Origin: Crocinitomicaceae bacterium
Lineage (GTDB): Bacteria > Bacteroidota > Bacteroidia > Flavobacteriales_D > Crocinitomicaceae
Direction: 5' to 3'
NCBI GenBank assembly: GCA_044370735.1
Contig: JBILUY010000001.1
Span: 1-44,294 of the forward strand
DNA: 44,294 nt
Below, one piece after another: positions 9,779-29,526 of the stretch. Numbering within the stretch: position 1 is the first letter of the stretch; the number at the start of each line of letters is the position of its first letter. The notes beneath the pieces were generated by a model. That model saw nothing but the letters and a program-made list of their open reading frames with translations. It did no database searches and was not told where the DNA came from. Position numbers and translations under genes: made by a program.

Positions 9779-10642
9779 ATGAAAAAGATACTTTATACAT
9801 TTTTAGCTATTTCAGGATTAGTATTGACTTCGTGTGAAAAAGTGATCAAAGTTGATTTGAATTCTGAAGATCCAAAATTGGTTGTAGAAGCTTCTGTCAT
9901 TGCAGATTCATCAACCCATTCTGTAAAGTTGACACAGTCGATAAATTTTGATCAAGATGTTACACCACCTGTAGTCTCAGATGCACAAATCACGATTAGT
10001 GACGTTACCGATGCAACTTCAGCAAAATATACCTTTGATGTTACATCACAAACATATAAAGTAACTAACTTTTTAGCTAAAGAAGGTCACACTTATAAGT
10101 TGACTATTCTTGTTGGTGGGAAAACATATATTTCGACCAATACTATTCCTAAACGTGTTACTTTAGATTCGTTGAAAGTGGCTGAATATCCATTTGGACC
10201 TCAAACAATTTATTCAATTGTACCTTTAAGAAATGATCCAGCTGGCATTACCAATTACTATTTATTTAGGTTGAAAAAGAACGGTAAATCTATTAATGGT
10301 ATTTACACGGAAGATGACCAAGGGTTAGATGGACAGTTGACATTAAAACCAATTTTTACACCAAATAACGATTATACACCAGATACAACTATCAATAATG
10401 TGCGTAAATTCAAATGGAAAGAAAATGGTCTTGTATCAGTATTAGATTCGATTGAAGCTGAGATTCAAATGTCATGTATCAGTGAAAAAACATATCGTTT
10501 CTTTTATTCTTTAAGTTTAAATGGTGGAGGACAACAGTCAGCAACACCTTCCAATCCTGACTCTATGTTTGAAGGTGGCGCACTGGGTTATTTTTCAGCT
10601 GAAACTAGACAAATAAAAAAGTTGACAATTAAAGGTAAATAA
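9779..10642 (+). CDS. DUF4249-like lipoprotein partner of the TonB-dependent receptor
   Basis: 287 aa with lipobox LTSC, starting 12 nt after the receptor stop. The pattern KLVVEASV...SVKLTQS resembles the lipoproteins that usually follow this receptor class in Bacteroidota. Recognised from memory, not searched. Confidence 0.6.
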   Translation: MKKILYTFLAISGLVLTSCEKVIKVDLNSEDPKLVVEASVIADSSTHSVKLTQSINFDQDVTPPVVSDAQITISDVTDATSAKYTFDVTSQTYKVTNFLAKEGHTYKLTILVGGKTYISTNTIPKRVTLDSLKVAEYPFGPQTIYSIVPLRNDPAGITNYYLFRLKKNGKSINGIYTEDDQGLDGQLTLKPIFTPNNDYTPDTTINNVRKFKWKENGLVSVLDSIEAEIQMSCISEKTYRFFYSLSLNGGGQQSATPSNPDSMFEGGALGYFSAETRQIKKLTIKGK

Positions 10643-19885: not shown

Positions 19886-20926
19886 CTACCTTTTTGGCTC
19901 TGATATTAATGTGTCACCGATCATTGAATAATCGGTTAGAGTAAATAAAAATTTCATCAAATTCTTTTTATCTGTAGAAGATAAATTCAAATTTTTATTT
20001 AGTGTTGGATCAAGGTTTGAATGTGATTTTATTCCTGAATTATAATGATTAATCACGTCCATAATACTTGCAAATCTCCCATCGTGCATAAATGGATAGG
20101 TAAATTCAACATTTCGTAAGGTAGGAACTTTGAATTTAGCTCGATCACTTTCTATTTTAGTCACATTATATCTTCCATCGTCTTTGTAGATACTATCTAG
20201 ACCATTATTTCTAAAAGAATAATCCGTAAATAAAGGTTCTTTGTGACATTGAGCACAATTCGTTTTAAATAATTCATATCCTGCTTGTTCGTTTGCTGTG
20301 AACGTAGCTTTACCAGCCTTCACTTGATCGTATTTAGAATTTGCAGAAACAACAAATGCCATATACTGACTTAAAGCTAGTTGAAGGTATTTGGGGGTGA
20401 TACGATTAATATTATATGCTTTTTTAAATTGAGTTGAATAGAAATTGTTTTTATTTAATTTTTCAAAAAGATGCGTTGTGTCTTCTTTCATTTCAATCGG
20501 GTTTAAAATAGGATGCATTGAGAAATCATCCATTTTTGTAACATTTCCATCCCAAAAGAAATAGGGGTTCCAAGCCATATTAAACACAGGCGGTGCATTA
20601 CGATTTCCAAAAGCGCCATTTACTCCTTTGCTAAATGGAATATTGTGGTCTGCAAATCCGTGCGTTTGTGCGTGACACGTTGCACAAGATATGGAACTAT
20701 CTAACGATAGAATTGGGTCGTAAAATAAATACCTTCCTAGTACAAATTTGGCCCTGCTGACTGTATTCCCTTCAAAAGAATAAATTGAGCTCGGAAAATT
20801 GGAAGGAGCATTGAAAGCAAAATTATCTTGTGGTACAGATGGAATAGGAGATATAACGGGCTTATCTTTTTTACAACTACAAACAATTGTAAAGATGAGA
20901 ACCCCTATAACCCCTAACTTTTTCAT
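19886..20926 (-). CDS. di-haem cytochrome c peroxidase / MauG / MbnH superfamily lipoprotein (copy 2)
   Basis: 346 aa. Two CXXCH sites (SCATCHAQTHGFADH, NCAQCHKEPLF) plus FFWDG and YPFMHDGRF motifs. Lipobox-like VCSCKK. Confidence 0.85.
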   Translation of the reverse strand: MKKLGVIGVLIFTIVCSCKKDKPVISPIPSVPQDNFAFNAPSNFPSSIYSFEGNTVSRAKFVLGRYLFYDPILSLDSSISCATCHAQTHGFADHNIPFSKGVNGAFGNRNAPPVFNMAWNPYFFWDGNVTKMDDFSMHPILNPIEMKEDTTHLFEKLNKNNFYSTQFKKAYNINRITPKYLQLALSQYMAFVVSANSKYDQVKAGKATFTANEQAGYELFKTNCAQCHKEPLFTDYSFRNNGLDSIYKDDGRYNVTKIESDRAKFKVPTLRNVEFTYPFMHDGRFASIMDVINHYNSGIKSHSNLDPTLNKNLNLSSTDKKNLMKFLFTLTDYSMIGDTLISEPKR

Positions 20927-20936
20927 ATTTTTAAAT

Positions 20937-21536
20937 TTAAAAATTTTTCTGTATTCCTACAAAACAATCTTGGTGAAATTGATTGTTTGTTGTGTTATAT
21001 TGTTGAAAATAGGAGAGTTCATATCGACCATATACACCCCATTTTTGATTGAAGAAATAATGGATTTCTGGTAATAGAGTAACTCCGATACCGTTTGTGT
21101 AAAATCGGGTCCAAAGAGGGGATTTAATCATCCATTTTGTTTTGGAAAAATAGGGGAAAATTGACACAAGAGGCTCCAAACTAGACGCTTGAGTTCCTCT
21201 ACTGTCATTATCTAAACGTAAACGTAGATCGACACCAATTCCGGCATATAATCTCCAAGCAGCTTTATCTATCCATTTGTATTCGAGTATAGGTGTAAGA
21301 TCGTAAGCTGTTTTTGAAAAGTAAAAAAGTGTCCCATATGAACGGATCCGAGCAGAAAATAACAAATCATTTCTGTATGAAGTGGTATAAATTACATTCG
21401 TAATAGGATAGATATAGCGATTGCGGTAACTTCCAATATCGGTACTTATGGTACTTTTCAATTGTTTCATTTCCTGTGTATATCCCAATGAGAATATACA
21501 TAGTAACAAAATCACTAAACTATTGAATTTCATCAT
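20937..21536 (-). CDS. small predicted outer-membrane beta-barrel protein
   Basis: 199 aa. Signal peptide MMKFNSLVILLLCIFSLGYTQ and a C-terminus ending in F (GIQKNF). Its start overlaps the upstream stop as ATGA. Confidence 0.5.
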   Translation of the reverse strand: MMKFNSLVILLLCIFSLGYTQEMKQLKSTISTDIGSYRNRYIYPITNVIYTTSYRNDLLFSARIRSYGTLFYFSKTAYDLTPILEYKWIDKAAWRLYAGIGVDLRLRLDNDSRGTQASSLEPLVSIFPYFSKTKWMIKSPLWTRFYTNGIGVTLLPEIHYFFNQKWGVYGRYELSYFQQYNTTNNQFHQDCFVGIQKNF

Positions 21537-22333
21537 GGTTGCACACTGTTAAAAGTTGGACCAATCTTTACTTCATCAAAATACACAACATTATTATTTT
21601 TTGGTTGAATGTGTCCGTGATATTGCCCGAATTTGAAATAGTTTCCTGCTCGGTTGTAAAGATTTGGGCTATAGAATTTGTGGTCTTTTCCGTTATTTGG
21701 AGTGATATATTCCTTATTTAACCAAGCTTCGATAAATCCTTTGTCTGTATCATCCCAATAAATATGTGCAGTAAAGTCATACCATTTTCCTTTTTCGATG
21801 GGAATGCTATTTCCAATCAAATAGGTTTGATTACTGCTTCTCGGGTTTGAATTTCCATGTAATTCCATTTTCCCATCCACATAGGTAAATTGAATGGGAG
21901 GGGGAGAGCCGTGAAGTACGGGTGTGCTTGTCCAACTTTCACCGCGAAGGTAGTCAGGCAAATCTTGCCATTGACAGAGTAGGGTATAGGAGTCATCTTG
22001 GTAATTAGTATCGATATAGAAACTAAAACCATAATAAGCTTCGGATTGGTAGTTTGCCGAATGATAAACAGCTAATTCTGTTCGATAACCATTAAAGACA
22101 AAATCTTCTGTATGTAAGGTTGTTTTCAATGCTGTTTTTCCAGAGCGAGTAGGGTAATTTACTAAAGAAAGATTGGCATTGGTATCTTTCACTAAAAGCA
22201 AATCATACGATTTTAATTTGTTGATCTCAAAACGATCTTCAAACGGTGCTATCGGTTGATTGGGTTCGTTCAGCGGAACTTTCCCACAGGAAAGTAAAAC
22301 AAGAAGAAATAGTATAACCCCAAATTTCATCAT
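21533..22333 (-). CDS. concanavalin-fold lipoprotein, polysaccharide-lyase (heparin lyase I / PF14099)-like
   Basis: 266 aa with lipobox LLSCGK. The pattern GYRTELAV...FSFYID...LCQWQD...SPPPIQFTYVDGKMEL...GKWYDFTAHIYW...GFIEAWLN...YFKFGQY...VYFDEVKIG matches my recollection of that family. The start overlaps the upstream stop as ATGA. Confidence 0.5.
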   Translation of the reverse strand: MMKFGVILFLLVLLSCGKVPLNEPNQPIAPFEDRFEINKLKSYDLLLVKDTNANLSLVNYPTRSGKTALKTTLHTEDFVFNGYRTELAVYHSANYQSEAYYGFSFYIDTNYQDDSYTLLCQWQDLPDYLRGESWTSTPVLHGSPPPIQFTYVDGKMELHGNSNPRSSNQTYLIGNSIPIEKGKWYDFTAHIYWDDTDKGFIEAWLNKEYITPNNGKDHKFYSPNLYNRAGNYFKFGQYHGHIQPKNNNVVYFDEVKIGPTFNSVQP

Positions 22334-23349
22334 CGGATTGGTTCAGCATATTTTGTACTTCCAATATACGAATAATCACTCAAGGTTTTTAAAAATTCAA
22401 TTAAATCCGATTGGTCTTTGTCGTTTAACGGAAAACCATTGACGAGTAAAGGGTCAGTTGTTGGTGAAATTTGAATTCCGGTAGCTTTGAATTTTACCAC
22501 TTCTTTTAAGTTTGCAAATCGTCCATCGTGCATGTAAGGATAGGTAAATTCAATATTGCGTAGGGTTGGAACCTTGAATTTTCCTTTATCTGCCGGAGCT
22601 TGCGTTACTTTTTCTACACCGATATCTACGATGTTACTTTCTAAGCCACTGTTTCTAAAACTATAATTTGTAAAAAGAGGTTCGGTATGACACGAATTAC
22701 AATGTTGTTTAAATAGCTCATAGCCATGTTGTTCATTCGATGTAAAAGTTGCTTTCCCTAATTTCACTTGATCGTATTTGGCATTCGCTGATATTAGCAT
22801 TGAGGTAAATTGAGCCAAAGCATGCAGAAATTTTTGATCCGTAATGGTATCAACTCCAAAGGCTTTTTTAAACTGTTTGCGATAGAAAGCACTTCGATTT
22901 AGCTTTTTCATTAAATTGCTAAATGTTTCACCCATTTCATGTTCGCTGGTAATTGGTACAAGAGGTTGTACTTCGATGTGATTTACTCCTCCATCCCACA
23001 TAAAAGTAGGTGACCAAGCAAGGTTCATCAAAGCGGGAGCATTTCGTGTTCCAAATTTTCCGTGAACTCCTTTACTTAAGGGAACGTTATGATCAGCAAA
23101 ACCATGTGCTTGAGCATGACAGGAACTACAAGATAAAGAACTATCTGCAGATAGGATAGGGTCGTAGAATAAGAACCGTCCTAACTCAAAACCTGCTTTC
23201 GTTAATGGATTGTTTGAGTAAGAATAAACTGGTTTTGGAAAATGACTTGGTTGGTCAAATGTGAAAGTATCAATTGCAGAAATTATTGGTTCATCTTTTT
23301 GACAAGACAAAAGAATGAAAAGTAGAATAAATGGTAATATTATTTTCAT
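22330..23349 (-). CDS. di-haem cytochrome c peroxidase / MauG / MbnH superfamily lipoprotein (copy 1)
   Basis: 339 aa. Two CXXCH sites (SCSSCHAQAHGFADH, HCNSCHTEPLF) plus FMWDGG and YPYMHDGRF motifs. Lipobox LLSC followed by QKDE. Confidence 0.85.
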   Translation of the reverse strand: MKIILPFILLFILLSCQKDEPIISAIDTFTFDQPSHFPKPVYSYSNNPLTKAGFELGRFLFYDPILSADSSLSCSSCHAQAHGFADHNVPLSKGVHGKFGTRNAPALMNLAWSPTFMWDGGVNHIEVQPLVPITSEHEMGETFSNLMKKLNRSAFYRKQFKKAFGVDTITDQKFLHALAQFTSMLISANAKYDQVKLGKATFTSNEQHGYELFKQHCNSCHTEPLFTNYSFRNSGLESNIVDIGVEKVTQAPADKGKFKVPTLRNIEFTYPYMHDGRFANLKEVVKFKATGIQISPTTDPLLVNGFPLNDKDQSDLIEFLKTLSDYSYIGSTKYAEPIR

Positions 23350-23368: not shown

Positions 23369-23391
23369 GGGTGTCTCATAAAGAGACACCC
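23369..23391 (-). terminator. intrinsic-terminator-like hairpin between the MbnP-like gene and the peroxidase operon
   Basis: GGGTGTCTC (23369..23377), loop ATAAA, GAGACACCC (23383..23391). On the minus strand it is followed by TTTTTT, and the next ATG comes 19 nt after the stem. Confidence 0.6.
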
Positions 23392-23401
23392 ATCCAATTA
23401 A

Positions 23402-24214
23402 CTATTGATTATTTGTTACTTTTTTAACAGAGAATCCATAAGGACTGTTAAATAAACCAAATCCTCCATTTTCGCCCAGAGCCATAGTCACAGCAGGAGT
23501 TCCTGGCATGTGAATCATGTTTAATGTTTTCACACTTGGTGCTGAATGCCACAATAAACCTGGGTTAACTTCCATAGAAATAGTACTTTTCTTGTTTGCA
23601 GTTACTGTTACTTTTGTAGTGTTTTCTAACGCTATTGATTTTTTTGTAACCACATTGTTCGCACCACTAAATCCACCTAAATGGAAAGCAAACATTTTTT
23701 GTTTTGCGGTATCTAAATATTTACCTTCTGCTTTTAACATGATGTAACCACTTTTCCAGCTCCAGTACATATCATTTGTTACAGCTAAATCACCTGTTTG
23801 AGCTCCAGAAACGTTTCTTGCACTATCCACACCTAACGTATATTCTAGGGAAGTATAATCACCTGCTGGAACATTTGCTAAACTAATTGTCAAAGAACTT
23901 GGTTTAGAAAGGTCAATCAAATGGTAGCTTTCAGTTTCAGTCCAGTAAGTACCATCCGCTTTTTTCAATTTTACATTCGTAAAGAAATATTTGAATTTAG
24001 AAAAATACATCGTATCCTTTTTCATTGGGTGAATGAAAATACTATCCAACATAAAGTCTTTCTCATTCATCATACCATACTTATGAGCAAACTCGATGTT
24101 TACAGTACCATTTCCTACTGTATTAGGTGTAGTAGTTGTGTCATCTTTTTTACAAGAGGTTAATCCTAAGATTAAAGTCGCAGCAGCTGCGATTGTTAAT
24201 TTGATTGTTTTCAT
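23402..24214 (-). CDS. MbnP-like lipoprotein (WxW motif)
   Basis: 270 aa with lipobox LTSCKKDD. Beta-rich pattern YFSKFKYFFTNVKLKKADGTYW...VPAGDYTSLEYTLGVD and the motif DMYWSWKSGYIMLKAEG (WSW at 23756..23764). Sits next to a MauG/MbnH-like di-haem enzyme. Confidence 0.5.
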   Translation of the reverse strand: MKTIKLTIAAAATLILGLTSCKKDDTTTTPNTVGNGTVNIEFAHKYGMMNEKDFMLDSIFIHPMKKDTMYFSKFKYFFTNVKLKKADGTYWTETESYHLIDLSKPSSLTISLANVPAGDYTSLEYTLGVDSARNVSGAQTGDLAVTNDMYWSWKSGYIMLKAEGKYLDTAKQKMFAFHLGGFSGANNVVTKKSIALENTTKVTVTANKKSTISMEVNPGLLWHSAPSVKTLNMIHMPGTPAVTMALGENGGFGLFNSPYGFSVKKVTNNQ

Positions 24215-24277: not shown

Positions 24278-26653
24278 TTATTCGATAATCAATTTCTCAA
24301 TATGTTTTCCGTTTACATATTCCACATGAATGAAATAAACACCAGTACTGAAAGCAGTTTCCAATTCTAAATCTGTTTTGTTAACAAATTGAATTTCTTT
24401 TACTTTCATTCCAAGTTCGTTGAAAATTACTACTTGTTGAATTGCTGCAGGAGCATTGATAGAAATATTTCCTTTAGAAGGATTAGGGTAAACTTGCGTT
24501 TTCGTAGCATTTATTTCCTCGATACCAGCGCATGCTTCTCTTGTTAATGAAATACTATCTCTGCTTGTAGTACCTACTTTATCAGTGATTTCAACCCAAT
24601 AGTTTCCTGTAGATAAATTACTTACTGATAACGTTGTATCACCCGTACTCCATTTGATTTTGTATGGTGCAGCAGGAGCAGCGAAGATTGTTCCACCTGT
24701 GAAAGCAATCGATAATTCTCCTTCTTTGTTAGCACATGTTGCTTTTTTCACTTCTGCAAAAGCTACATTTAAAGGAACTTCTGATAATGAATTTGAATAA
24801 ATACTATTATTTTCAGTTGAAACAAAAACGCGTTCTCCAGCAAAACCAATTTTGTTCACATCTGTGAAACTTGGTAAGTTGAATTGATTTCCACCTCTTT
24901 CCCATGTTTTCCCTTCGTCAGAAGTTGCTAATAAACCACCTTTGTATGAAGCGAATAAGTAACCACCGTAAGTACCTAATGCTTGAATAGCATCACCATC
25001 TAAACCTAACATTACTGTATGATCGATTGATGTTTCAGCGGTAGCTTTCCAATCTATGTTTTCGATGTTTGAAACATATACTCCACCGTGATGAGCACCT
25101 ACGTAAACATTTGTTCCTAAAGCAGTAATACTTGTTAAATGATCTGTCGGTAAGTTTTTATTGATATCTACCCAGTCACCAGCGTTCTCATTTTTAACAA
25201 AAGCACCTTGACCGTGAGCAGCTAAATATACTTTACCTCCTAAAAATGCCAATGACACAGGCTCCATTCCTTGTGGAAGTCCACCCATAATCATCGTCCA
25301 ATCATTTGTTCCGTTTGATTGCCAGATGTTTCCAGTACTACAAATTACATAGATAAAGTTTTTAGAAGCAAATACTTTTTCGATATTCATATTTGTCAAT
25401 CCTTTGTTAAAAGTAGACCAAACATTAGCTGCTGTATCAGTAACAAATACACCTGCATTTTCAGTCACTGCATATGCTTTAGAACCAAAAATTGCAAGGT
25501 CATTTACATTCAAACTATCCGTTAAACCTTTGTTTATTTTAGTGTATGAAGTAGCTAAATTTTTGGTTACATAAACACCTCTTTCATTTGCCACATAAAT
25601 TAGTTTTGCATTATTCGTTGCGAAAGAATTTGTTTTAATGTTATTGAAACCAGTGTTAGTTGCTACCCATTTGCTAGTGTTTTGATCTAAACGATAAATA
25701 CCATTGTTTTCAATACAAACATAAATTTGATTTTGATGAATGAAACCATTATTGATGTTTAATGAATCAGTAATGTTAAAATTATAAGAATCATATTTTT
25801 GACTAATTGGGTCTCCTAAACCTCTTTCAGTTATAAATAATGCGTTTGATCCGATTTCATCAATAATGATATTTTTTACTTTTTCCGAAAATTGAGAAAC
25901 AGTATAATCGAATTTAGTAATAGTATCAGCTTTTTCTAAAACTAATAAGTATGATTCAGTGAACACCGCTAATTCATCACTATTACCTAAGTAATTGATT
26001 GATAAAGCACCATTTAAATTTGTAGTTTTTATATCATTCAACGAAGCCCAAGTAGTGCCTAAATTTTCAGAATAATAAATACCTTTTGATTCCGTTAAAA
26101 GAAATACTCGTTTGCTAGATTGACTTAAACCAACAATTTTAGTACCCGCAAAAGAGAGATTTGTTACCTCTGTCCAATTGTCTCCTAAATCTGTTGATTT
26201 AAAAAGTTTACCAGATGTTGTTCCAGCTAATAAAGTGTTTGCATCCAAAGCTATTACCGAAGTTAAATCCAACGACGTTAACCCTTTGTTGATTTTCACC
26301 CAGTAACGATCTGATCCAACATATCCAGAAAAACGGAAGATACCACTATCTGCAGTAGCTGCAATCGCATATTTTCCTGTATGAGCTAATCCAACAATTT
26401 TACCGCTTTTTAAACCTACAGGTCTTGCTGACCAAGAAACAATGATGGTATCTTTTGCAGTTGCATCGTACTTACGTGTACCTGCATATACACCTCCATT
26501 TGCAGTACCAATGTAAACGGTATCTTTTTTAGTTACAGAACAAGTTACAGTTCCGCCACCATAAGGACCTTTCGATCCAAAGTGTGCAAAAGAAGTTGCA
26601 CTCACTAAAACACCGGTTAAGGCTAATCCAATTTTAGTAATTGTTTTTTTCAT
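24278..26653 (-). CDS. BNR/Asp-box (sortilin/Ycf48-like) beta-propeller protein with SprB-type repeat and T9SS sorting domain
   Basis: 791 aa with a signal peptide. Asp-boxes STDLGDNWTEV, SENLGTTWASL and SDEGKTWERG. SprB-like module KKATCANKEGELSIAFTGG...YKIKWSTGDT...GNYWVEITDKVG. C-terminal QVYPNPSKGNISINA...GVYFIHVEY...KLIIE. Confidence 0.75.
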   Translation of the reverse strand: MKKTITKIGLALTGVLVSATSFAHFGSKGPYGGGTVTCSVTKKDTVYIGTANGGVYAGTRKYDATAKDTIIVSWSARPVGLKSGKIVGLAHTGKYAIAATADSGIFRFSGYVGSDRYWVKINKGLTSLDLTSVIALDANTLLAGTTSGKLFKSTDLGDNWTEVTNLSFAGTKIVGLSQSSKRVFLLTESKGIYYSENLGTTWASLNDIKTTNLNGALSINYLGNSDELAVFTESYLLVLEKADTITKFDYTVSQFSEKVKNIIIDEIGSNALFITERGLGDPISQKYDSYNFNITDSLNINNGFIHQNQIYVCIENNGIYRLDQNTSKWVATNTGFNNIKTNSFATNNAKLIYVANERGVYVTKNLATSYTKINKGLTDSLNVNDLAIFGSKAYAVTENAGVFVTDTAANVWSTFNKGLTNMNIEKVFASKNFIYVICSTGNIWQSNGTNDWTMIMGGLPQGMEPVSLAFLGGKVYLAAHGQGAFVKNENAGDWVDINKNLPTDHLTSITALGTNVYVGAHHGGVYVSNIENIDWKATAETSIDHTVMLGLDGDAIQALGTYGGYLFASYKGGLLATSDEGKTWERGGNQFNLPSFTDVNKIGFAGERVFVSTENNSIYSNSLSEVPLNVAFAEVKKATCANKEGELSIAFTGGTIFAAPAAPYKIKWSTGDTTLSVSNLSTGNYWVEITDKVGTTSRDSISLTREACAGIEEINATKTQVYPNPSKGNISINAPAAIQQVVIFNELGMKVKEIQFVNKTDLELETAFSTGVYFIHVEYVNGKHIEKLIIE

Positions 26654-29070: not shown

Positions 29071-29472
29071 TTATGCTGTTGGGGGATGAAAAATAGCGTC
29101 TGTGTGTTTGTCAGACCAAACTATAGCATAATAAAAATCTTTTTTAGAAGAAGGTTGATTAGCTAAATCTACTTTGAAAGTTTCGAAAAACGACTGTTGA
29201 TCTAAAGTAAATTCACTTGTTTCAATTTTTGACTTACCAAAATCAATTTTATTTGATTGTTCTTCTTTGGCTTGTTCCTTCGCTAATTGTTTTGCTAAAT
29301 AACATTTACCATTACAATGTAGCATCGGTTTGGCTTTGTTTTCACAATATTTTCGTGTGATTTCCGCCTTATTGATTTGATAATTAATGAATAAACCTGT
29401 CTTAATCAGTGTGTTAGAAACAAACAGACTGATCATACAAAAAGCAAAAATCTTGTATGCTAGGTTTTTCAT
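29071..29472 (-). CDS. membrane-anchored protein with C-x9-C-x3-C motif, function unknown
   Basis: About 133 aa from ATG 29472; the track start at 29490 lies inside the upstream terminator stem. N-terminal TM segment (AYKIFAFCMISLFVSNTLI), then YCENKAKPMLHCNGKCYLAKQLAKEQ. Confidence 0.5.
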   Translation of the reverse strand: MKNLAYKIFAFCMISLFVSNTLIKTGLFINYQINKAEITRKYCENKAKPMLHCNGKCYLAKQLAKEQAKEEQSNKIDFGKSKIETSEFTLDQQSFFETFKVDLANQPSSKKDFYYAIVWSDKHTDAIFHPPTA

Positions 29473-29488
29473 GAGACAAATGTAAAAC

Positions 29489-29526
29489 AAAAAACGAACC
29501 TAAAAAGTGATTTAGGTTCGTTTTTT
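29489..29526 (-). terminator. strong 16-bp stem-loop terminator
   Basis: AAAAAACGAACCTAAA (29489..29504), loop AAGTGA, TTTAGGTTCGTTTTTT (29511..29526). A/T runs on both sides allow action in either direction. Follows the stop of the 29556..30167 gene. Confidence 0.75.

Follow-up and report, generated by a model that had tools for sequence, protein, structure and literature searches.

Two MbnH-like di-haem enzymes packed with a lyase-like lipoprotein and its outer-membrane barrel: probably a mosaic of two unrelated units

Does tight packing of genes tell us which enzyme works on which substrate? The question is raised by a window of 44,294 nucleotides (the whole stretch of DNA that was analysed) from a Crocinitomicaceae bacterium, where two genes of di-haem peroxidases bracket those of a lyase-like lipoprotein and of a small outer-membrane barrel. 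A sequence-only reading of this DNA had taken the packing to imply co-expression at fixed stoichiometry, and had raised the hypothesis that one peroxidase may service a WSW-bearing MbnP-like protein and the other may modify a second substrate, possibly the tryptophan-rich lipoprotein. Our answer is that the stretch is probably a lineage-specific mosaic of two functionally unrelated units, whose packing would stem from operon capture rather than from a relationship between peroxidase and substrate. The features on which the argument turns are the following, all on the minus strand.

23402-24214, minus strand: MbnP1 (PF20243), with WSW at residues 151-153, 52 nt upstream of CCP1
23369-23391, minus strand: terminator-like hairpin between mbnP1 and CCP1 (9 bp, 6 G-C pairs, then a T-run)
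22330-23349, minus strand: CCP1, 339 aa, PF03150 CCP_MauG, a di-haem lipoprotein of the MbnH family
22486-22488, minus strand: Lys288 codon of CCP1, aligning with NeCCP Met258, MauG Tyr294 and the MbnH Tyr
22330-22333, minus strand: ATGA in which the CCP1 stop codon overlaps the start codon of the lipoprotein gene, lineage-specific (a 5-nt gap in the related locus L001)
21533-22333, minus strand: PF14099 lyase-like lipoprotein, 266 aa
21965-21967, minus strand: Gln123 codon of the lipoprotein, invariant in 33 homologues, where B. thetaiotaomicron heparinase I has its catalytic base His151 (CQWQD versus AQWHG)
21533-21536, minus strand: ATGA in which the stop codon of the lipoprotein gene overlaps the start codon of the barrel gene, a 4-nt overlap kept in 33 of 35 loci
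20937-21536, minus strand: barrel, 199 aa, an outer-membrane beta-barrel with a signal peptide
20927-20936, minus strand: 10-nt gap between the barrel and CCP2, read from the sequence
19886-20926, minus strand: CCP2, 346 aa, a second MbnH-like di-haem lipoprotein
20042-20044, minus strand: Tyr295 codon of CCP2, at the MauG/MbnH-type E-haem ligand position

Open reading frames and sequence agree on four minus-strand genes, with ATGA overlaps at two of the junctions and a gap of 10 nt at the third. With such tight packing co-transcription is plausible, and to this extent the co-expression that had been proposed stands. A scan for sigma-70 promoters gave 36 sites, fewer than the mean of 44.7 in shuffled controls, and does not cover Bacteroidota promoters. 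The hairpin between mbnP1 and CCP1 has an equivalent, with a different stem sequence, in two genomes of the same genus (G246 and G423). Two contigs of the RNA library X24 lie over CCP2 only, and they are no proof of transcription.

Could the gene order be an assembly chimera of a fragmented MAG? The genome consists of 389 contigs, with 5.4% contamination. No independent metagenome contig was found to bridge the junction between barrel and CCP2, a place taken by a cytochrome c gene in related strains; in X2 the interval 20857-21007 is uncovered, hence nothing can be inferred from it. Yet the other two junctions are spanned by independent metagenome contigs, CCP1/lyase-like by X3 record 14 and lyase-like/barrel by X2 record 3, X3 record 13 and X4 record 21, and the gene order is the same in L001. 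A chimera is extremely improbable. The arrangement is shared by at least one more genome, that of L001, and probably by a third, represented by the metagenomic proteins P0009 and P0122, for both of which the longest contig measures 17,698; given this recurrence it is stably kept, and there may be selection for co-expression.

The two enzymes belong to the same broad family. PF03150 CCP_MauG matches both (Pfam, E 2e-53 and 7e-51), with haem motifs CSSCH at residue 74 and CNSCH at residue 217 in CCP1, CATCH at residue 81 and CAQCH at residue 224 in CCP2. They are 54% identical and sit in different clades. That they are of the MbnH/MauG type, not canonical scavengers of H2O2, is borne out by several features: both can be aligned with MbnH (6E1C) over its whole length, C-terminal tail included; TIGR04039 is the best-scoring NCBIfam model for both, at 212.8 and 187.3 bits, below its trusted cut-off of 362.85; and the His-Met ligation of canonical CCPs is absent, Lys288 and Tyr295 aligning with Met258, with no Met nearby. 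The motif P[FY]MHDGR, rightly noticed in both copies, had been misread as a guide to axial ligands: its Met is not an axial haem ligand, and canonical CCPs read PYFHDG, with the axial ligand 15 residues further on. It is at the distal-ligand position of the E haem that alignment with MauG, MbnH and canonical CCPs separates the paralogues. CCP2 has the Tyr of the MauG/MbnH type (Tyr295), hence a putative His-Tyr ligation, but CCP1 has Lys288 instead. The Lys of CCP1 is conserved across a monophyletic clade of 37 sequences (tree support 1.0), CCP2 falls in a separate Tyr clade (support 0.995), and neither is of the canonical His/Met type. Among 130 family genomes, none yielded an orthologue of CCP2 with more than 55% identity.

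This difference may matter for catalysis. The E haem of MbnH has His-Tyr ligation (PMC11892367; also the 6E1C alignment), and the Tyr ligand is associated with bis-Fe(IV) chemistry (PMC11892367; PMC6405878), the signature of which is lost in Tyr-to-His mutants of MauG and BthA (PMC6405878). For this reason the Lys clade of CCP1, and a His clade also seen here, are predicted to differ in chemistry.

CCP1 ends a copper-associated operon ordered o139, a Met/His-rich outer-membrane barrel, MbnP2, cytochrome c, (a T9SS protein), MbnP1 and CCP1. By analogy, MbnP1 is the expected substrate of the adjacent CCP1. In 29 of 30 Flavobacteriales loci the gene directly upstream of the CCP codes for an MbnP, which supports the part of the proposal that paired one paralogue with the WSW protein. 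CCP2 has no directly adjacent MbnP. In G246 the order is MbnP2, cytochrome c, MbnP1, CCP1 (82% identical), a small cytochrome c and a SpoIIE regulator, without any insert; the operon of G423 is as in G246, with the same ending of MbnP1, CCP1 and small cytochrome c, and this ending is ancestral.

The lipoprotein and the barrel tell another story. Their genes are adjacent in all 35 related loci, among which a di-haem gene adjoins the pair in L001 only. No CCP is found within 7 kb in 33 of the 35; in L026 an MbnP-CCP pair lies 2.6 kb away. Other neighbours are heterogeneous, and no sugar-catabolism genes recur beside the pair in these loci. The pair was not found in G246, and in G423 it is on a different contig from the CCP1 operon.

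The lipoprotein matches PF14099 (Pfam, E 2e-32, 113.2 bits for a cut-off of 29.9). It has a lipobox (LSC16) followed by an invariant CGKVP N-terminus, and its AF2 model (pLDDT 86.9) has the beta-jelly-roll fold of PL20/heparinase I; Foldseek ranks the PL20 lyase 2ZZJ first (E 8e-14), with heparinase I and PL7 lyases next. Its motifs are equivalent to those of B. thetaiotaomicron heparinase I, with Q121, Q123, K234 and Y238, invariant in 33 sequences, at the place of Q149, H151, K353 and Y357. The catalytic residues are conserved in part: Gln121, Lys234 and Tyr238 are kept, but the set Gln149/His151/Tyr357 (with Lys353) is incomplete, the catalytic His being replaced by Gln123. Because this His is an invariant Gln, with the Gln, Lys and Tyr residues of the substrate site retained, the protein is most likely, as far as its sequence tells, a putative acidic-glycan-binding protein or a non-canonical lyase. 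The tryptophan motifs listed for it are present, Trp122, 134, 184 and 193 being invariant. A literature search for PF14099 with outer-membrane partners returned nothing relevant.

The barrel, of about 180 residues and 10 predicted strands, has no Pfam or NCBIfam match, and the ESM Atlas gave generic outer-membrane-barrel neighbours only. Its Foldseek matches include OpcA, KdgM, NanC and VhGalP, with TM-scores of 0.43-0.54; the 12 strands and family signature of the KdgM/NanC porins are absent. It has many invariant Arg residues that have a common strand parity. Predictions of its complex with the lipoprotein gave ipSAE values of 0.81, 0.82 and 0.80, the best control scoring 0.00 (58 of 80 solved complexes come up to this mark, as do 2 of 110 mismatched pairs); at least 94% of contacts are common to the runs, with partner pLDDT of at least 87. 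In the predicted complex the interface residues of the barrel are all on its odd-numbered, longer loops, and the lipoprotein docks by its invariant post-Cys CGKVP tail and its 125-143 loop, part of its cleft, Tyr232 included, being at the interface. The lipoprotein is thus predicted on the extracellular-loop face of the barrel, surface exposure being assigned by the usual topology rule of outer-membrane proteins; the canonical Bacteroidota K-(D/E)2 export signal is absent from it. Invariant columns show clear enrichment on the barrel side of the interface (8 of 17, in 23% of residues) and are marginal on the lipoprotein side, an observation that we do not take as evidence.

How do other readings of the four genes fare? 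One, after the examples of MauG/preMADH and MbnH/MbnP, is that tryptophans of the lipoprotein are oxidised by one of the two di-haem enzymes, for which CCP2 with its Tyr would be the more plausible candidate, the other paralogue servicing MbnP1. The ATGA overlaps, the sharing of the arrangement with L001, the ligand of CCP2 with its tie to bis-Fe(IV) chemistry and the four invariant tryptophans all speak in its favour. Yet the constant partner of the lyase-like protein is the barrel, not a peroxidase, and the same tryptophans are equally conserved in the 33 loci without a nearby CCP. Trp122 is structural, as heparinase I has the same residue (QWH). Further evidence against it comes from the same-genus genomes, where the MbnP-MbnH operon lacks the insert and, in G423, the pair is on another contig, and from L001, where a small cytochrome c gene stands between the barrel and CCP2. 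The predicted extracellular position of the lipoprotein is also at odds with such oxidation, which we see as very unlikely. Modification in trans is another matter: as 382 of the 401 Flavobacteriales genomes searched carry MbnH-like genes somewhere, the lyase-like protein may be modified by an enzyme encoded elsewhere.

It might also be that CCP2 is a redox or catalytic partner within the copper operon, replacing a lost small cytochrome c or servicing the WxW-less MbnP2, with the lipoprotein-barrel pair a passenger. Downstream of the Lys-type CCP a small cytochrome c is present in three of three other loci, and downstream of the Tyr-type CCP in none of 28; this genome yielded no orthologue of it, and the locus has two MbnP-like genes for two CCPs. 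But L001 carries both the small cytochrome c and CCP2, MbnP2 is kept without CCP2 in G246 and G423, and CCP2 has no close orthologue in the family genomes, which leaves this reading unlikely. We give the same weight to the idea that the lyase-like protein works at the surface as an active lyase of some uronate-containing glycan, with the barrel as a KdgM/NanC-like channel that imports the acidic oligosaccharide products. Family and PL20/PL13/PL7 fold, the conserved Gln, Lys, Tyr and Arg residues, the presence of KdgM, NanC and VhGalP among the matches of the barrel, the part of the cleft at the interface and the barrel arginines of common strand parity would fit. However, the catalytic His is an invariant Gln, and a His151Ala mutant of heparinase I was crystallised with an intact heparin dodecasaccharide (3INA); the barrel has too few strands and modest TM-scores, and sugar-catabolism genes are not recurrent neighbours.

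We come back, then, to the mosaic. Unit A would comprise CCP1, and probably CCP2, as di-haem enzymes of the MbnH family that belong to a copper-associated outer-membrane/periplasmic operon, where CCP1 would use H2O2 to oxidise the WxW tryptophan of MbnP1, by analogy with MbnH and MbnP. Unit B would be a two-gene module that stands on its own, with translational coupling between its genes, and that came to lie downstream of CCP1 by insertion in this lineage; in it the lipoprotein would dock on the extracellular-loop face of the barrel to make a lipoprotein-capped barrel at the surface; the barrel may be an anchor or a narrow conduit. More tentatively, and with some doubt, the two units might each be undescribed: a rare Bacteroidota family of two-component outer-membrane complexes (10-strand barrel plus heparinase-like pseudo-lyase lipoprotein) and a Lys-type, MbnP-linked di-haem clade with a dedicated small cytochrome c. 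In that case the barrel would bind the tail that follows the lipidated Cys, and display, anchor, perhaps export the lipoprotein at the cell surface; the natural replacement of Tyr by Lys, judged from alignment, would imply a His-Lys or five-coordinate haem.

The lesson is that tight operon packing does not, here, mark an enzyme-substrate pair. Furthermore, the CCP that adjoins an MbnP is without the Tyr ligand thought necessary for protein oxidation of the MauG type, and a paralogue that does bear it lies at a distance of 2 kb, which makes the locus a natural experiment on the need for a His-Tyr haem in the formation of kynurenine in MbnP. The lipoprotein, for its part, is a candidate non-catalytic member of a lyase family, and with its barrel it makes a small, sharply conserved pair with a strong predicted interface, a minimal model for lipoprotein-barrel coupling outside the SusCD paradigm in Bacteroidota.

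Among known systems, MbnH-MbnP of Methylosinus trichosporium OB3b (6E1C and 7L6G) is the closest to unit A, with a CCP_MauG enzyme directly downstream of a WxW MbnP gene, alignment over the whole length and the axial Tyr kept in CCP2. It differs by the Lys of CCP1, by TIGR04039 scores (213 and 187 bits against 363), and by the setting, which in the window is that of Bacteroidota lipoproteins, with a second, WxW-less MbnP, a Met/His-rich outer-membrane barrel and small cytochromes, and without a methanobactin cluster. With the His-Tyr, bis-Fe(IV) enzymes MauG and BthA the window enzymes share two CXXCH motifs, the inter-haem Trp, Ca-site residues, the distal Glu and the lack of the canonical Met ligand, but their similarity to MauG is much lower (about 84 bits). 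The lipoprotein has the jelly roll of PL20 glucuronan lyase (2ZZJ) and of heparinase I (PL13, 3ILR/3INA), is a member of PF14099, and shares with heparinase I the QW and YFKFGxYR motifs; unlike heparinase I it has Gln123 in place of the catalytic base, and unlike both it is a lipoprotein, small and of a single domain, whose partner is always a dedicated outer-membrane barrel. The structures that come closest to the barrel model are OpcA, KdgM and NanC (TM-scores of 0.4-0.5), several of which handle acidic glycans, but they have no sequence similarity to it and no lipoprotein partner, and KdgM and NanC have 12 strands where 10 are predicted. Finally, the SusC/SusD-type transporters of Bacteroidota offer an analogy of architecture only: their barrel has a plug and a TonB box, absent from the window barrel of about 10 strands and 180 residues, and their lipoprotein a TPR fold in place of a jelly roll, but in both a surface lipoprotein would cap the extracellular face of a co-encoded barrel.

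The evidence favours reading the locus as a mosaic, made of an MbnP/MbnH-type copper-protein operon and a captured lipoprotein-barrel module. Four minus-strand ORFs fill positions 19886-23349 of the window, with the following Pfam assignments:

22330-23349, minus strand: CCP1, di-haem enzyme, PF03150 (CCP_MauG)
21533-22333, minus strand: lyase-like lipoprotein, 266 aa, PF14099 (Polysacc_lyase)
20937-21536, minus strand: barrel protein, 199 aa, no Pfam assignment
19886-20926, minus strand: CCP2, di-haem enzyme, PF03150 (CCP_MauG)

The tight packing described in the sequence-only reading is borne out by the ORFs and by inspection of the sequence: stop and start codons share an ATGA at 22330-22333 and again at 21533-21536, and 10 nt (20927-20936) separate the barrel gene from CCP2. 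The source genome, of which the window is contig C145, is a 3.0-Mb MAG in 389 contigs; judged by related loci, the window belongs with freshwater Flavobacteriales, close to Crocinitomicaceae. Independent metagenome contigs span the CCP1/lyase-like and lyase-like/barrel junctions; none of them spans the barrel/CCP2 junction, and in a related strain it is the C-terminus of the small cytochrome c (...WISQGKANN) that lies upstream of CCP2.

CCP1 and CCP2, the only PF03150 genes of the genome, share 54% identity. That they are MbnH/MauG-like, as had been proposed, was confirmed: TIGR04039 (the MbnH family) is the top-scoring model for both, with scores under its cut-off, and both align end to end with the MbnH structure 6E1C, including a C-terminal LxFLKTLTD...P.R tail which canonical CCPs lack. 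The P[FY]MHDGR motif shared by the two copies proved no guide to the axial ligand, the Met of P[FY]MHDG not being a ligand. In the alignment with MauG, MbnH and canonical CCPs, suggested in the same reading, the position of Met258 in the canonical His/Met peroxidase NeCCP, of Tyr294 in MauG and of the MbnH Tyr is occupied by Tyr295 in CCP2 and by Lys288 in CCP1. Among 153 aligned CCP homologues this column holds 106 Tyr, 38 Lys and 9 His. In the tree the Lys sequences form one clade (support 1.0) which includes CCP1, while CCP2 groups with its counterpart from L001, a locus in another genome, in a separate Tyr clade (support 0.995); because they belong to separate clades, the two genes are not a recent tandem duplication. 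His-Tyr ligation sets MauG-type enzymes apart from canonical ones (PMC11892367), and the bis-Fe(IV) signature is lost in Tyr-to-His mutants of MauG and BthA (PMC6405878), so that the chemistry of the Lys clade may be different. A third clade comprises the nine MbnH-like sequences in which His (NHH) takes the place of the axial Tyr (among them P0040-P0045, P0052 and P0089), a naturally occurring counterpart of the MauG Y294H mutant.

In 29 of 30 Flavobacteriales loci the gene immediately preceding the CCP gene encodes MbnP. A terminator-like hairpin followed by a T-run separates mbnP1 from the di-haem gene in the window (23369-23391, minus strand) and in two loci of other genomes (L066, 9955-9990; L082, about 10185-10215). 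Its stem sequences differ among the three same-genus genomes, and it may be an attenuator that sets MbnP high relative to MbnH. Many Flavobacteriales loci (L040, L042, L044, L046, L048 and others; 16 matching ORFs) have, shortly before an MbnP-CCP pair, a relative of the 139-aa membrane-anchored Cys-rich protein o139 (29071-29490, minus strand), which in this order may belong to the MbnP/MbnH system as a third conserved component. Between cyt c and MbnP1 is the gene for a T9SS-sorted BNR/sortilin-like protein (24278-26653, minus strand). Of two genomes of the same genus, G423 has it in this position (71% identical) and G246 lacks it, so its membership of the copper operon varies.

For the lyase-like/barrel pair, we compared 35 loci with lyase-like relatives (46-73% identity; one genome per species in the scan). 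In every one of them the barrel gene comes directly after the lyase-like gene, and the 4-nt overlap is kept in 33; a CCP gene flanks the pair in L001 only, and the remaining 119 neighbour genes are heterogeneous. The pair is thus an autonomous module, and the earlier proposal of CCP paralogues bracketing a substrate finds no support. In one further locus, L026, an MbnP-CCP pair is found 2.6 kb away. Modification of the lyase-like protein in trans by a di-haem enzyme is still conceivable. Neither family is large, the lyase-like subfamily comprising 109 clusters at 90% identity and the barrel family 64 of 1.84 billion representatives. Elsewhere in the window's genome (C144:9848-10444, plus strand) there is a second PF14099-like ORF, a very distant one (28.9 bits).

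How the mosaic might have arisen can be read from three gene orders:

G246: o203, o139, MetA-like OMP, MbnP2, cyt c, MbnP1, CCP1 (82% identical), small cytochrome c (115 aa), SpoIIE-type regulator
G423: G246-type operon plus the T9SS gene, ending with CCP1 then small cytochrome c; lyase-like/barrel pair on another contig
L001: CCP1, lyase-like, barrel, small cytochrome c, CCP2

The pair probably entered the operon at the boundary of CCP1 and the small cytochrome c, and the window later lost that cytochrome; a search of the window's genome yielded no orthologue. The small cytochrome c lies downstream of every Lys-type CCP with a known downstream context (three of three other Lys-type loci, versus none of 28 Tyr-type). 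It is a lipoprotein of 115-117 aa ending in ...CWI(S/N)QGK(L/A)NN (L066, 11065-11412; L082, 8652-9005, minus strand; L001, 2436-2783).

The barrel model (pLDDT 87.6, about 10 strands) resembles the small outer-membrane barrels OpcA, KdgM and NanC loosely. Complex prediction supports binding of the lipoprotein to it, with ipSAE values of 0.81, 0.82 and 0.80 against 0.00 for the best control, at least 94% of contacts agreeing between runs and partner pLDDT of at least 87; 58 of 80 solved complexes scored at this ipSAE mark or above, as did 2 of 110 mismatched pairs, a calibration that is approximate since the alignments were self-made. The modelled interface involves barrel residues 38-44, 67-77, 105-121, 146-151 and 177-188, all at the odd-numbered, longer connections, which would form the extracellular face given periplasmic termini. 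On the lipoprotein side it comprises residues 17-21, which form the post-Cys tail, the loop at 125-143 and the neighbourhood of Tyr232.

As for the lipoprotein itself, its AF2 model (pLDDT 86.9) best matches the PL20 glucuronan lyase 2ZZJ (E 8e-14), followed by TtX122, Cip1, heparinase I and PL7 alginate lyases. In an alignment of 33 sequences Cys16 is invariant and followed by a nearly invariant GKVP; YRTE, CQWQD and GNYFKFGQY are invariant. Profile search pairs CQWQD with AQWHG of heparinase I, and GNYFKFGQYRG with GYYFKFGIYRV, equating Gln121 with Gln149, Gln123 with His151, Lys234 with Lys353 and Tyr238 with Tyr357; the H151A structure 3INA has AQWAG at the same motif, which confirms the register. 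A check of the PF14099 catalytic residues therefore has a mixed outcome: the other residues of the heparinase I site, Gln121, Lys234 and Tyr238, are kept in the lipoprotein, but the catalytic base, His151 in heparinase I, is here the invariant Gln123.
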